Assembly (NCBI GenBank): GCA_041697335.1
Contig: JBGUGD010000007.1
Span: 128,001-192,000 of the forward strand
DNA from: Vampirovibrionaceae bacterium NZW_1234
GTDB lineage: Bacteria > Cyanobacteriota > Vampirovibrionia > Vampirovibrionales > JAGQHJ01
Direction of reading: 5' to 3'
DNA length: 64,000 nucleotides
Shown here: piece after piece, positions 18,651 to 56,016 of the stretch
Layout of the letters: each line of letters begins with the position of its first letter
How positions within the stretch are numbered: position 1 is the first letter of the stretch
Notes under the pieces: generated by a model
Seen by the model: only the letters and a program-made list of their open reading frames with translations
The model's database searches: none
What the model was told of the DNA's origin: nothing
Made by a program: the position numbers and the translations under genes

Positions 18651-18782
18651 CTAATGCGACAAGAAAGTTCCTCCGGACAGCCTGAACGGCATCGGCATCA
18701 TCATCATCGCCATGGTGGAATGACCCAAGCGCGAAGAAACAACTTGGGAGGGCATGTGTTGAATTGTGGTTAACAACAACAT
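18651..18782 (-). CDS. Met-rich leader peptide of metX-metB (43 aa)
   Basis: MLLLTTIQHMPSQVVSSRLGHSTMAMMMMPMPFRLSGGTFLSH; 6 Met in 8 codons; its 3' part is complementary to the terminator 5' arm. Confidence 0.85.
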   Translation of the reverse strand: MLLLTTIQHMPSQVVSSRLGHSTMAMMMMPMPFRLSGGTFLSH

Positions 18783-49639: not shown

Positions 49640-49723
49640 TGGTGGGCAGAACAGGACTTGAACCTGCACGCATTGCTGCACTGGTACCTAAAACCAGCGC
49701 GTCTACCATTCCGCCATCTGCCC
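49640..49723 (-). tRNA. tRNA-Leu (TAG)
   Basis: GGGCAGATGGCGGAATGGTAGACGCG CTGGT-TTTAGGT-ACCAG, long variable arm, GTTCAAGTCC, encoded CCA. Confidence 0.95.
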
Positions 49724-52013: not shown

Positions 52014-53282
52014 TTAGCGAATCCGCTGAATCACCAGTTTTTTGGATTCCAAGGGATTCAGGCCCAGGCGAGCGCTGGCATTGTCAAAGTTCAAGGCAAT
52101 TTCGACGAAGCGTTTGTCTGGTTTCGGGCTGTAGGTGCTGCCCAAGTACAAGACAGGGTCTTTTTTGGGGACTTGGGCAAAGAATTTTTTCAAGGGCAAT
52201 TGCAGCGGCGTAATGGGATCTGTGGGATCGGCGCTTCGAATTTCAAATACCGCATCCTGGGCCAAGAGCTTTTCTGCTTGTTTGGCGTTGAGAATCAGGT
52301 TCGTTTTGATGTTACCGAAGGTTCGGTCTTGAACGCCATAAAATTCCGTGCCCTTGTCGCTTGCTTTTAGAGGCAGAGAGACGATGGATTGGGCAAATGG
52401 GGTGATCTTGGGCGTAAATTTACGAGCTCGTTTCTCATCACATAAGGCTTCCGGGGCAATGCCGTTGGCAATGGCCGCAGCTGCCACCATAAACACATCT
52501 CGCCCGTGGAAGGTTTCAGGCAGTGTGTAGCTGGGGTTTTTCAGGCGAATGCGCTCCAGTTGCTGAACTTTTTCCAAATCGATGGGCAGGAGTTTATAAC
52601 GTTCGCCTTTTTCTTCCAGACTCTTGATGGCCAAGCTGAAAATGCCGTTATTGGGGCCAATCACCAAGCCGTAGTTCTCCGTGATGAGAATGCTTCGATC
52701 ATGGGTGATTTTTTTCTTTCGGGTCTCCCCATTACCAACACCGGGGTCACACACCAGAACAACAATGTCTTTGTTTGGACGTGATGTTGCAATCCGTTGC
52801 AGGGTGAGTGCAGCGTAGTCGGTATTCCCGAAGGGAATGTCGGACAGGGAGTGAACGGGGATGGTGTCGGCTTTTTTCGGTGTTGAGAACACCCCTAAAA
52901 TGGCGTTTAGAACTGTCTTTAAAATCGCTTTGATTTGGCCGATTAGTGATGTGTCCGGTGCTTCTTTGGGGGCGCGATTCCAGCGCTTAAAGGGTTGCAG
53001 TTCCTGGCCCCGGGTGTCGGTGAATTTTAAGACGTCCCGGTAACGACTGATGGCTTCGGCATTGGAGCTGGCATCGTTAAAATCGGTAATGAGGTGAACA
53101 TTTTCAATGGGGGCTTTAACCCAGGATTTTCCAAATCGCAGGTTTGGCAAGGAATGTAATGACCCTGCGCCTTTTAGGAGGCTGTGACGAGCGGGCACCC
53201 GTTGGGAAATCTGCGCTGGGGATTTTTTTAGGGGAAGGGTGTGTTGTGTGACAGTGTGGTGAATGGGGTGAATGTGGGACAT
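52014..53282 (-). CDS. SAM hydroxide adenosyltransferase / SAM-dependent halogenase (DUF62) family with LRFG leader
   Basis: LITDF, VCDPGVG, GPNNGIF, TFHGRDVF and FGNIKTN. Confidence 0.85.
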   Translation of the reverse strand: MSHIHPIHHTVTQHTLPLKKSPAQISQRVPARHSLLKGAGSLHSLPNLRFGKSWVKAPIENVHLITDFNDASSNAEAISRYRDVLKFTDTRGQELQPFKRWNRAPKEAPDTSLIGQIKAILKTVLNAILGVFSTPKKADTIPVHSLSDIPFGNTDYAALTLQRIATSRPNKDIVVLVCDPGVGNGETRKKKITHDRSILITENYGLVIGPNNGIFSLAIKSLEEKGERYKLLPIDLEKVQQLERIRLKNPSYTLPETFHGRDVFMVAAAAIANGIAPEALCDEKRARKFTPKITPFAQSIVSLPLKASDKGTEFYGVQDRTFGNIKTNLILNAKQAEKLLAQDAVFEIRSADPTDPITPLQLPLKKFFAQVPKKDPVLYLGSTYSPKPDKRFVEIALNFDNASARLGLNPLESKKLVIQRIR

Positions 53283-53319
53283 GAGGGAGCATCCTTTCGG
53301 GGTTTACTGACAGAACAAT

Positions 53320-53357
53320 AAAAAAGACCGCCGACCTGGTGGAGGTCGGCGGTCTTT
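53320..53357 (-). terminator. Attenuator terminator upstream of the SAM hydrolase
   Basis: Perfect 15 bp stem AAAGACCGCCGACCT-CCACC-AGGTCGGCGGTCTTT ending in a T6 run, ~40 nt before the start codon. Confidence 0.9.
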
Positions 53358-53374
53358 GAAGCTTTGGGTTCGAC

Positions 53375-53485
53375 TTATCTCGATCCGGCGCTGCACGTGC
53401 CAACCTCCACCAAGAAGGGCATCATCATGGTGGACATCATCATGGCAGTGGTTTGTGCAGCGGTTTGGATGGCAAGAGTCAGCAT
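53375..53485 (-). CDS. Met-rich leader peptide of the SAM hydrolase (36 aa)
   Basis: Hand translation MLTLAIQTAAQTTAMMMSTMMMPFLVEVGTCSAGSR*; 6 Met in 8 codons; contains the antiterminator strand. Confidence 0.85.
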   Translation of the reverse strand: MLTLAIQTAAQTTAMMMSTMMMPFLVEVGTCSAGSR

Positions 53486-53525
53486 GGGAAAATTTTTTTC
53501 AAATTTAAGGTCAAACTTGGTAAGA

Positions 53526-53554
53526 AGAATAACAGCGTTCTCGTGTGCTGTCAA
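53526..53554 (-). promoter_or_regulatory. Sigma70 promoter for the leader/SAM hydrolase transcript
   Basis: Minus strand TTGACA-17 nt-TATTCT with TGn extended -10. Confidence 0.7.
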
Positions 53555-53579
53555 TCTGTAAGGTAAAACTCGGTCTTGT

Positions 53580-53921
53580 TCAGCGTGACTGTCTTCGTTT
53601 GGCTAGAGATGACAGCAGCAGCGGAGGCTGACATTGATGAATATTCACGGAAATCCGATTCATCGCCTCTAATTGCTCCTGATGCAGGATCATCCCAAGG
53701 CGAATCCGTTTTTGAAGCGTCGGCAATGCCAAGGCCTCACACACGGTTTCTGGGTCAATGGATGCTGCATCCCGTTGTGTTTGAGTGACTTCGTGGATGG
53801 CTCGGCTGGTTGAAAACCGAAGCTTGCCCAAGGCCAAGCGATCCAGCAGGTGTTCGGCCTGTTCAAAGAAAAACGTATAGGATGGGGGAATAACCACCGG
53901 GGGGCGTTCAGTGACAACCAT
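53580..53921 (-). CDS. Hypothetical protein
   Basis: Likely start MVVTERPP; 113 aa. Confidence 0.55.
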   Translation of the reverse strand: MVVTERPPVVIPPSYTFFFEQAEHLLDRLALGKLRFSTSRAIHEVTQTQRDAASIDPETVCEALALPTLQKRIRLGMILHQEQLEAMNRISVNIHQCQPPLLLSSLAKRRQSR

Positions 53922-54051
53922 TGATAAAAACCATATTTCTTTGCGGTTATCGTAACAGATATGAATTTTATAAGTACTCGAATAAAACCACAACAGCAGC
54001 AAATATGCATCTGTTACGAGCAAAGATTACAGAAGTTTAAGTAACAAATCG

Positions 54052-56016
54052 TTAAAAACGGGACGATAAAGGGCGCTGATCGACGCTGGTTGCCCAGTCT
54101 TTGACGATGCTGCTACGGGAAGGTGTGGTTGTATAAGAATCACACGATTCTGTTACCGCAGACACCGTATCCGTATTGGGATTAATCGCAGAGCCTAACT
54201 TTCCATACAGGCAATAGCCTACACCTGGAGCAAAAAGCTCTTGGCCCGGCTGCGGGTGATAGAAGTTGGAGCAGCTGCCACAGGAGACGAGTGTGAAGCC
54301 TTTGGCCCGAAGCTTGTCTTGAAGGGCTTCAAAGGCATCGTCCAATATGGAATAGGTGCGTGTTGTAAAGGAGAGGTTTTTGTACTCGAAAATCAGATGG
54401 TAGGCCGGATCTCCATTACTGTCATAATCGGTTACGGTCGTGATGCTGCACATCACAGCATTTTTACCGTTCGTGATGGGTAAGGTGGTGGTCACCGAGG
54501 TGGGTTCTTTCGAAGCTTCCTGAAGGGGGGCTTCTTGGCGATTCAATTGATCCTGGTAGATTTGAGTAAAGGGATCCTCGGCCAATTCCGTTGTCGTTAC
54601 CCACTGAGAGGTGGCTACCGGTTTGTCTTCCATGACGTAATCGGCGGCATACATATCGGCAGTGGGAGATTCAAGCGTCGTATCAAAATCGACGGCAAAC
54701 CGGCGTGGCTTGCGATTTGATTTTTTGGATTTTTCCTGGCGAGCCGGCTTTTCTTTAACAGACATATCTGTTTTTGCGGCCGGTTGACTTTCGTCAAAGC
54801 GCTTGCCGATTCGTGCCTGGCGGTTTTGGGTACTGAGGTTCATAACGCTTTCAATTCCAACCCGGACCAGGTAGAAGGGCAGAGCCACCAAACCCAAGGC
54901 ATAGACCAGCGGTGTCACTGCAATGGAGAACAGGATATCTCCCAGACCACACCGGGCAACGGCCAAAGACATCAGTTGCAGGCTCCAGAAGGCCAGGGTG
55001 AATGCACCAAAAGCATAAAAACCTGCCAAGCCATTGGGGTCCTGCATGAAGGAGACGGCAACCGTGGCTGCAATCAGGCCCAAGACAAAGCCGGGCGGCT
55101 TTGCAATACACCATGCTTGCTCAAGGGCGTTTAATTCCAATTTGGAGATCCCCTGCCAGAGCAATTTCGGTACATACTGGACCAGCATTCCCAGGCGAGT
55201 CGGGATGCTTTGGGCAATGCGATGCATCTGGGACGGGAAGGTAACCCGATCTTCTTTATACACCACCACATTGGGGGCCCAGTGAACGCGGTAGCCATTT
55301 AAATTGAGAAGGGCCGTATACTCCAGGTTGTCCAGTTCATCAACTTGACGAAAAGGGAGCATTTCCAGAACTTCCTGGCGAACCACCCAGCCGGAACTCA
55401 TTAAACGACAGGACAGGCCCATGTGAAAGCGCCCTGCGTTTTCAATCCGGTTAATCAAGCGATTGGACAGGGCCACGATTTGCGAAATGGGGCCTTTGGG
55501 TGGGCGTTTCAGTGCCAGGTAGCCTTGAATGGCAAAACAATCGAACGCTCGTGTCGTGACATTCTTCAGAAAATCGGGGCGAATAATGTCATCGGGCTCT
55601 AAAAAAACAAAGAGTTTAGAGGGGCCACCGGCAGCCAATAACCGTTCTACCAACCAGCAAACCAGCTGCCCCCGGTTTGCCGGTCGCTGAGGATAGGTCC
55701 AGACTTTGGCATGGGATGGAAGTTCCCCGGGCATGGGGAGCCCATACTGATTGGCTTCCGTGGTGACAATGTGAATCCCCAGGCGACTGACAGGATAATC
55801 CTGTTTCTCCAGGGCCTGCATCAAATCCTGAAAAGCCAGGGCTTTGCGGGAATCGGTAAAGGGAATAACAATGGCGATATGAAAGTCGGTGCCACTTTTA
55901 TAAATATGTTTGATGAGATCCTGTTTGCGCCCCATTTCCGCAAAGAATAACAACAGGGCAGAACGAAGCAGGATTAGGCTCCCGAGAACGGTAAAAGCAA
56001 TAGACAGCATGGTCAT
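54052..56016 (-). CDS. GT2-like membrane glycosyltransferase (degenerate) with C-terminal Cys-cluster domain
   Basis: IAIVIP, QDYP, VFLEPDD, TM helices; C-terminal CGSCSNF...GYC...C. Confidence 0.75.
   Translation of the reverse strand: MTMLSIAFTVLGSLILLRSALLLFFAEMGRKQDLIKHIYKSGTDFHIAIVIPFTDSRKALAFQDLMQALEKQDYPVSRLGIHIVTTEANQYGLPMPGELPSHAKVWTYPQRPANRGQLVCWLVERLLAAGGPSKLFVFLEPDDIIRPDFLKNVTTRAFDCFAIQGYLALKRPPKGPISQIVALSNRLINRIENAGRFHMGLSCRLMSSGWVVRQEVLEMLPFRQVDELDNLEYTALLNLNGYRVHWAPNVVVYKEDRVTFPSQMHRIAQSIPTRLGMLVQYVPKLLWQGISKLELNALEQAWCIAKPPGFVLGLIAATVAVSFMQDPNGLAGFYAFGAFTLAFWSLQLMSLAVARCGLGDILFSIAVTPLVYALGLVALPFYLVRVGIESVMNLSTQNRQARIGKRFDESQPAAKTDMSVKEKPARQEKSKKSNRKPRRFAVDFDTTLESPTADMYAADYVMEDKPVATSQWVTTTELAEDPFTQIYQDQLNRQEAPLQEASKEPTSVTTTLPITNGKNAVMCSITTVTDYDSNGDPAYHLIFEYKNLSFTTRTYSILDDAFEALQDKLRAKGFTLVSCGSCSNFYHPQPGQELFAPGVGYCLYGKLGSAINPNTDTVSAVTESCDSYTTTPSRSSIVKDWATSVDQRPLSSRF

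Follow-up and report, generated by a model that had tools for sequence, protein, structure and literature searches.

A candidate methionine-sensing leader-peptide attenuator ahead of a SAM_HAT family gene in a Vampirovibrionales genome

What controls a gene whose upstream region carries, in this order, a promoter, a short open reading frame (ORF) crowded with methionine codons and a strong terminator, all ahead of the gene's own start codon? This question is raised by a locus of Vampirovibrionaceae bacterium NZW_1234 (assembly GCA_041697335.1), in which a gene of the SAM_HAT family is preceded on the minus strand by such a leader. The stretch of DNA that was analyzed, referred to below as the window, comprises 64,000 nucleotides (nt) of contig JBGUGD010000007.1 (positions 128,001 to 192,000), and all coordinates given here without another label are counted from its first letter. 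The leader probably acts as a ribosome-mediated transcription attenuator of the leader-peptide type, which would sense charged elongator Met-tRNA and thereby control the SAM_HAT gene. The original prediction, drawn from the letters of the DNA, had read the region as a Met-sensing leader-peptide attenuator, and this reading is supported by the anatomy of the locus, by shuffle statistics and, above all, by comparative data.

The elements lie on the minus strand and begin with a sigma-70-type promoter at 53554-53526, consisting of a -35 hexamer TTGACA (53554-53549), a 17-nt spacer and a -10 hexamer TATTCT (53531-53526). This promoter-like site matches the consensus at 10 of 12 positions, has a TG ahead of its -10 hexamer, and falls within the 95-nt gap 3′ of an unassigned 110-amino-acid (aa) ORF on the same strand; moreover, promoters with an identical -35 hexamer stand at the equivalent place in relatives. 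Transcription would start near 53521-53517, approximately 35 nt 5′ of the leader ORF. The short 5′ untranslated region (53519-53486) contains a small hairpin and then an A/U-rich tract directly 5′ of the leader ATG, which is left unpaired in the minimum free energy (MFE) fold; the leaders of relatives likewise have an A-rich tract upstream, as judged by eye. The leader ORF itself (53485-53375) is made up of 36 codons and a stop, with its ATG at 53485-53483 and its TAA at 53377-53375. Its regulatory codon cluster (53443-53420) occupies codons 15-22 and reads three Met, Ser, Thr and three Met, amounting to six AUG in eight consecutive codons, with Pro and then Phe directly after.

Four RNA segments can be distinguished within and behind this ORF. 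Region 1 (53438-53428), the putative anti-antiterminator strand, is situated inside the Met-codon cluster and can base-pair with the 5′ portion of region 2 (53412-53399), the 5′ strand of the antiterminator, which corresponds to leader codons 25-29 and begins 7 nt after the last Met codon. Region 3 (53357-53337) combines the 5′ arm of the terminator (53357-53343) with its loop (53342-53338), and region 4 (53337-53320) combines the 3′ arm (53337-53323) with a run of six U (53325-53320). The helix between regions 2 and 3 joins 53412-53399 to 53350-53337 over 14 base pairs (bp), one of them G-U, with a duplex energy of -27.8 kcal/mol, while the terminator (53357-53323) has 15 pairs, nine of them G-C, a loop of five and an energy of -27.2 kcal/mol; the first three T of the six-T run take part in the three outer A-U pairs of this hairpin. 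The original prediction had called a TTGACA-17-TATTCT promoter, a 36-aa ORF containing MMMSTMMMPF, a 14-bp antiterminator with a single G-U pair and a perfect 15-bp terminator with U6, and each of these was found where it had been placed, with the leader codons reading as described.

Beyond these elements, the MFE structure of the whole leader holds region 2 by means of the upstream strand 53438-53428. The corresponding apical hairpin (53445-53395) has an energy of -16.9 kcal/mol, and the 1:2 pairing forms the tip of a long hairpin that spans the whole ORF (53485-53370, -42.0 kcal/mol). This 1:2 hairpin was absent from the original prediction, and it would complete a trp-type layout of 1:2, 2:3 and 3:4 helices. 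The complementarity is clearly non-random: the most stable duplex that the terminator 5′ arm with its loop forms with the leader ORF region reaches -29.5 kcal/mol, whereas dinucleotide shuffles of the ORF region average -12.0 kcal/mol (sd 2.5) and not one of 2000 attained that value. Similarly, the MFE of the whole leader is -74.6 kcal/mol (z = -5.9), and none of 200 shuffles was as good.

From this layout, a mechanism may be proposed in which a ribosome would begin to translate the leader shortly after the RNA has emerged. With ample Met-tRNA, the ribosome would pass the six Met codons and cover region 2 while regions 3 and 4 are being made or, alternatively, the 1:2 pairing would re-form behind it; with region 2 unavailable in either way, the 3:4 hairpin would form and RNA polymerase would stop, leaving an attenuated transcript whose 3′ end is expected near 53320. 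With scarce Met-tRNA, the ribosome would stall with one of the Met codons of codons 15-22 in its A site, masking region 1 and leaving region 2 free to capture region 3 once that segment has been made, such that no terminator would form and the SAM_HAT gene would be transcribed.

The gene behind this leader (53282-52014, minus strand) starts only 40 nt beyond the end of the terminator, and a scan of 52900-54100 found no separate promoter-like site for it at 53320-53282. Its product is a SAM_HAT (DUF62) family protein of 422 aa, in which both Pfam domains (PF01887/PF20257) are recognized above their cut-offs, SAM_HAT_N at 52.9 bits (cut-off 26.3) and SAM_HAT_C at 28.8 bits (cut-off 25.5). The NCBIfam equivalogs for (R)-S-adenosylmethionine (SAM) hydrolase score far below theirs (NF058624, 59.3 vs 350; NF053629, 38.5 vs 470), and the closest solved structures are the DUF62 proteins 2cw5 and 1wu8/2wr8 together with the chlorinase SalL (2q6i), at E values from 8e-8 to 2e-4. 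The protein therefore appears to be a distant member of the SAM_HAT family; of the claim that a SAM hydrolase starts at 53282, the start codon and the domains are borne out, and the hydrolase label is to be taken as a family-level assignment. In addition, some 135 residues at the N terminus, preceding the Pfam-matched part, form an extension that is conserved between the protein and its orthologues.

The established reaction of DUF62 enzymes is the cleavage of SAM to adenosine and methionine, and the same reaction is presumed here by analogy. Because the family reaction releases methionine, induction under methionine shortage would recover methionine from SAM and return it to the pool, which may be the physiological role of this divergent enzyme; such a role would also account for the lack of a SAM riboswitch on the SAM_HAT gene.

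The leader is exceptional within its own genome, an assembly of 3.7 Mb in 41 contigs with 50% G+C and 94.75% completeness, whose closest named relatives are metagenome-assembled genomes labelled Vampirovibrionales or Melainabacteria. Genome-wide, 3880 terminator-like sites were collected together with 3551 small ORFs, namely those whose ends fall 15-95 nt upstream of such a site. The maximum number of Met codons in any eight consecutive codons was 0 in 2011 of these ORFs, 1 in 1235, 2 in 266, 3 in 34, 4 in 3 and 6 in 2. The two six-Met ORFs are the leader described here and another near 18700; both lie in the window and both precede methionine genes, and one of the three four-Met ORFs is a third leader, on contig C29. 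In addition, a uniform detector was defined, which calls for at least four Met/Cys codons within eight codons of an ATG-started ORF of 10-70 codons no more than 350 nt upstream of a gene, along with a hairpin that has an energy of -12 kcal/mol or lower and leads into at least four T within the same 350 nt. Applied to the 2398 ORFs of at least 200 aa in the genome, this detector flags five, of which three are the same three attenuators and a fourth lies on contig C2; the remaining match, a Met/Cys-rich small ORF on contig C10, was dismissed as a false positive because it is nested within the coding region of the gene before. For other amino acids, a genome-wide scan for leaders of Trp, His, Cys, Tyr and Phe before terminators recognized no convincing further attenuator.

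The comparative evidence is derived from orthologues of the SAM_HAT gene. A search of 60 relatives with the SAM_HAT protein gave 13 loci (L002-L014) at E <=3e-40, from which L007 was left out, since no more than 65 nt of its contig lie upstream of the gene, leaving 12 orthologues. The uniform detector flags 7 of these 12 (L002, L003, L005, L006, L008, L011 and L012), and a laxer cut of three Met/Cys in eight codons raises the count to 8 of 12 by adding L013. In a wider survey, a single-protein query of genome contigs returned no loci, while an alignment query returned 15 named loci in genome collections, eight of which were examined, and eight metagenome loci, six of which were examined. In the former group, a new leader was found at L025, and L027, L029 and L032 duplicate L004, L010 and L013, respectively; no leader was present at L028, L033 or L039, and L036 offers only a Cys-rich frame. 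In the latter group, leaders were found at L072 and L076, the second with ten Met codons in 31, and none at L071, L073, L074 or L078. The contig of L025 is labelled as uncultured Gammaproteobacteria, is A+T-rich and encodes a SAM_HAT homologue of 40% identity; either this label is imprecise or the distribution of the device extends beyond the order.

The leaders cannot be aligned between genera, yet across genera and families of the order they are built alike, with a promoter, an A-rich tract, an ATG, a Met or Met/Cys cluster and a terminator preceded by a strand that can pair with its arm, and with 49-72 nt between the leader stop and the start of the terminator T run. The cluster is almost purely Met in family f1 and at L012, L025 and L076. 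In several genera of family f3, Cys is mixed in or dominant (L005, L006, L008, L011, L013 and L072). The Met/Cys clusters suggest that both sulfur amino acids may be sensed, with a gene product expected to yield methionine. Among 14 leaders, the distance from the end of the last clustered Met/Cys codon to the start of the best antiterminator strand is 3-15 nt in 11 and -5, -5 and -28 nt in the other three, the last of these values arising at L025, where the cluster rule picked a C-terminal pair. Moreover, in 10 of the 14 leaders no more than 2 of 500 shuffles equal the antiterminator complementarity, and in the other four 10, 21, 30 and 41 shuffles do so. That the nucleotides diverge while an ATG-started Met/Cys ORF is kept before the antiterminator strand is the pattern predicted by translation-based sensing. 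Within one genus, the leader ORF shows 0-6 differences per 90 nt as compared with 35-48 ungapped mismatches per 60 nt in the 5′ flank, and these differences are too few for synonymous and non-synonymous changes to separate constraint on the peptide from constraint on the RNA.

Inspection by eye shows that a Pro codon follows within three codons of the Met/Cys run in 12 of 14 of these leaders, and in 11 of 13 leaders of a third regulated gene described further below. At the decision point, this codon may serve to delay the ribosome; alternatively, its recurrence may be due only to the needs of RNA pairing.

Folding calculations were used to follow the switch as a ribosome advances along the leader. 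In a footprint scan of a transcript truncated immediately 5′ of region 4, the A site was moved through the leader codon by codon, with a mask that extended 15 nt upstream and 12 nt downstream of the first base in the A-site codon. As long as the A site has not passed the last Met codon, upstream pairing sequesters the terminator 5′ arm to approximately 0.6, and with the A site at codons 23-33, that is, from the Pro codon on, the sequestration of this arm falls to 0.0-0.2. The same drop directly after the last Met/Cys codon is seen at L040, L002, L006, L008, L011 and L013, and it is weaker at L003 and L005. An equilibrium model containing the full terminator was rejected as a test of the switch, given that the terminator probability in this model is nearly independent of the position of the ribosome.

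Several observations nevertheless count against attenuation by a translating ribosome. Four of the 12 orthologues (L004, L009, L010 and L014) were not flagged by the uniform detector; L009 and L010 have a Cys/Met-containing frame without a clear terminator, and L014 closely follows another gene. No Shine-Dalgarno-like purine run was found before the leader ATG, the 15 preceding bases being A/U-rich, a weakness that the original prediction had itself pointed out. The stop codon of the leader lies 22 nt 3′ of region 2, such that a ribosome parked on it no longer covers region 2, and in the footprint scan a ribosome at the leader stop brings the sequestration of the terminator arm back up to 0.5-0.6. 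The same scan gives no clear drop for L012 and L025. With the full terminator present, the terminator probability is 0.3-0.5 at all ribosome positions in this leader and is flat in most of the others; since equilibrium folding does not reproduce the switch, the mechanism would have to be kinetic, and kinetic switching is the established view of leader-peptide attenuators. A ribosome-free transcript cut at 53337 prefers the 2:3 helix, at -44.4 kcal/mol versus -42.0 kcal/mol for the 1:2 ORF hairpin. For this truncated transcript, no clear stability advantage of the 1:2 hairpin over 2:3 is seen, and because of the preference for 2:3 the "off" state relies on an assumed co-transcriptional order in which 1:2 forms first. 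Furthermore, methionine starvation would also lower the charging of initiator tRNA, and with it initiation on the leader, which would oppose read-through. Finally, a search of sequencing runs for the stretch returned no RNA run; the 11 rows listed are all DNA, obtained from metagenomes of hot springs or microbial mats in 8 studies.

Part of the case against other explanations comes from Rfam. At gathering score, no family explains the region, whether in the window, at 11 leader-bearing loci or in 53250-53600; for instance, the T-box and the Thr, Trp, His and Leu leader families give no match in the window. The SAM-I riboswitch (RF00162) gives no match in the window, in the whole genome or at any leader-bearing locus, and the other SAM riboswitch classes give none in the window or at the leader-bearing loci (a scan of 17 loci). 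With the threshold relaxed to E up to 1, 53250-53600 again yields no RF00162 and only sub-threshold matches, among them ohsC, sX13 (28.8 bits vs 50, E 0.00094) and Thr_leader (18.2 bits vs 55, over the terminator only), all of which were treated as hairpin look-alikes. The only match at gathering score in the whole 64-kb window is a tRNA gene at 49643-49723 on the minus strand.

Among the alternatives, a programmed nascent-peptide arrest sensor would leave the RNA switch in place and change what it reports, in that a Met(/Cys)-Pro peptide would stall the ribosome on free methionine or SAM, much as TnaC does with tryptophan and the plant CGS1 peptide does with SAM. Stalling would still free region 2, and the signal, perhaps also its sign, would differ. 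The recurrent Pro codon in 12 of 14 and 11 of 13 leaders fits such a sensor, as does the far better conservation of the leader ORF than of its 5′ flank within a genus. However, that conservation is equally explained by the RNA pairing contained in the ORF, and leader lengths and sequences vary widely outside the Met/Cys cluster; in addition, induction by excess methionine or SAM would have the wrong sign for metX-metB, the genes behind the leader near 18700, and a cluster of end-product codons is an established hallmark of attenuators based on tRNA charging. An arrest sensor at this locus is therefore regarded as improbable. Slightly less improbable, and still unlikely, is a broader picture in which an order-wide sulfur-amino-acid regulon of non-photosynthetic Cyanobacteriota employs metabolite-responsive arrest leaders and includes a lineage-specific membrane protein family that would be new to methionine/SAM transport or salvage. 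Equally improbable as the arrest sensor is a real switch that is set by an RNA-binding protein, a ligand-binding RNA or a tRNA, with the Met codons incidental. The lack of a Shine-Dalgarno sequence, the ability of the alternative helices to form without a ribosome and the sub-threshold sX13 match would suit a switch of this kind, but no Rfam family reaches its gathering score at the places searched, and an in-frame Met/Cys ORF is kept before the antiterminator strand while the surrounding nucleotides diverge.

The leader might also be taken for an independent micro-protein gene with a terminator of its own, or for an ORF that acts only on downstream translation, for example by re-initiation. 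A promoter, an ORF and a strong terminator are indeed the parts of a free-standing small gene, and the next start codon lies only 40 nt from the terminator. Yet the 14-bp complementarity between the ORF and the terminator arm is far beyond chance and recurs in relatives, such ORFs always stand before methionine-related genes or before the same third gene family, and the SAM_HAT gene shows no promoter-like site of its own at 53320-53282; this explanation is accordingly considered very improbable. Least credible of all is the idea that an AUG-rich frame lies next to an unremarkable terminator by chance. Structures predicted from one sequence can be misleading and the genome encodes many Met-rich proteins, but the rarity of the leader among small ORFs (2 of 3551), the shuffles (0 of 2000) and the detector counts (7 of the 12 orthologues flagged, compared with 5 of 2398 long ORFs) all speak against coincidence. 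Attenuation through charged Met-tRNA is the probable explanation.

Leader-peptide attenuation in textbooks concerns Trp, His, Leu, Thr, Phe and the branched-chain amino acids, with trpL, hisL, leuL, thrL, pheL and ilvL of E. coli/Salmonella as the classical attenuators. For methionine, control is known to be exerted by MetJ, SAM riboswitches and T-boxes; to our knowledge, Met leader peptides have so far only been predicted. The present leader resembles the classical attenuators in its promoter-proximal short ORF, its cluster of end-product codons, its predicted, mutually exclusive 1:2, 2:3 and 3:4 helices, its terminator just before the structural gene and the overlap of its regulatory codons with region 1. 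It differs from them in that methionine would be the amino acid sensed, whose codon is also the start codon, in that the leader stop lies beyond region 2 and not between regions 1 and 2, in that it has no Shine-Dalgarno sequence, and in that a presumed SAM-cleaving enzyme takes the place of a biosynthetic operon. Furthermore, its host belongs to the Cyanobacteriota and is non-photosynthetic, and the leader matches no Rfam leader family. The SAM-I riboswitch is likewise a termination switch ahead of methionine genes, and it senses SAM directly by means of an aptamer. The locus and its relatives offer a complete, conserved and directly testable example of a Met leader, and they raise the question of how initiation that itself depends on Met-tRNA can report a shortage of Met-tRNA during elongation.

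The mechanism as such is already known, and Met leaders have already been predicted in Campylobacter and Streptomyces. The parts of the Campylobacter jejuni report that were available describe MetL as a predicted leader before metBA with 20 codons, three of them Met, and an RNA that ends just after the stop; termination is proposed to occur without stalling and read-through with stalling, and neither an antiterminator model nor a regulation test is set out there (PMC3847290). A translation start of Campylobacter MetL has been seen by Ribo-seq, according to an accessible portion of a preprint (bioRxiv 10.1101/2022.11.09.515450). As far as these excerpts describe it, MetL is like the present leader in being a short Met-codon ORF ahead of methionine genes, which is a likeness of kind; the leader in the window is unlike it in having six Met codons and full alternative helices, and in belonging to another phylum and to another regulated gene. 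For Streptomyces lividans TK24, the passages available of a further report give metL before metNIQ as a prediction, leaderless and without a typical Rho-independent terminator, with Met and Cys codons near the C-terminus (PMC8079986). These codons recall the Met/Cys leaders of family f3, while the actinobacterial host and the lack of a typical terminator set metL apart from the leader described here. Since the hosts of the published Met leaders belong to different phyla, an independent origin is likely.

Related devices have also been published for cysteine, including Cys leader-peptide attenuators in Actinobacteria (PMC1262725), polycysteine short ORFs in mycobacteria (bioRxiv 10.1101/834739) and a cysS upstream ORF motif in Rhodobacterales (PMC8632094). 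To the extent that the portions of these reports at hand show, the Cys leaders share the sensing of a sulfur amino acid by clustered codons in a short upstream ORF, some of them with a terminator-type read-out, and they differ in using Cys instead of Met codons, in other lineages and before other genes. In the literature searched, no experimental study of a Met leader-peptide attenuator was found, and no attenuation work in Melainabacteria was found.

The wording of the original prediction, which called this the second Met attenuator, implies a first, and this was found upstream of metX-metB. The first attenuator (18782-18588, minus strand) has a 43-codon ORF (18782-18651) with seven Met codons, followed by a hairpin and four U at approximately 18622-18588; a simple promoter/terminator scan flags neither element here, the terminator being missed because its T run has only four T. 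The Met-Pro pattern of the L025 leader resembles that of this first attenuator. Behind it lie, at 18491-16212 on the minus strand, a MetX homoserine O-succinyltransferase gene (18491-17445; NF006449, 311.9 bits vs 296) and a cystathionine gamma-synthase gene (17420-16212; TIGR02080, 567.2 bits vs 504.55). In family f3, a SAM-I riboswitch precedes 6 of 6 metX orthologues (E <=4e-95), whereas the present genome has no RF00162 and has a Met leader before metX-metB; the riboswitch therefore appears to have been replaced, which would be a case of regulatory turnover on metX. Two genomes, G040 and G044, carry both devices, the SAM-I riboswitch on metX and a Met/Cys leader on the SAM_HAT gene, and because the two stand on different genes, the leader would constitute a separate sensing channel.

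The third attenuator is located on contig C29 (L070, 495-650), with a leader at 495-578 and a terminator of -33.7 kcal/mol, and it precedes a gene (L070, 711-2000) for a 429-aa protein with several hydrophobic stretches. This protein matches no Pfam or NCBIfam family and has look-alikes in Melainabacteria only, and a protein atlas likewise gave no function for it. Thirteen orthologous loci of this gene were examined, and 12 of them have a Met/Cys-rich leader with a terminator, the latter ending 74-167 nt before the gene; the candidate at the thirteenth, 429 nt upstream, is doubtful. Because leaders recur at 12 of 13 orthologues, this Melainabacteria membrane protein family is probably methionine-related, perhaps a transporter, and its link to methionine metabolism would rest on shared regulation. 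By eye, the G+C-rich core of the terminator arm at 53357-53323 is common to the terminator of this third gene (L070, approximately 601-650), and the same core is seen downstream of the third-gene leaders at L086 and L091-L093, which belong to a genus of another family. Given this common core, the leaders may share ancestry and may have moved between genes.

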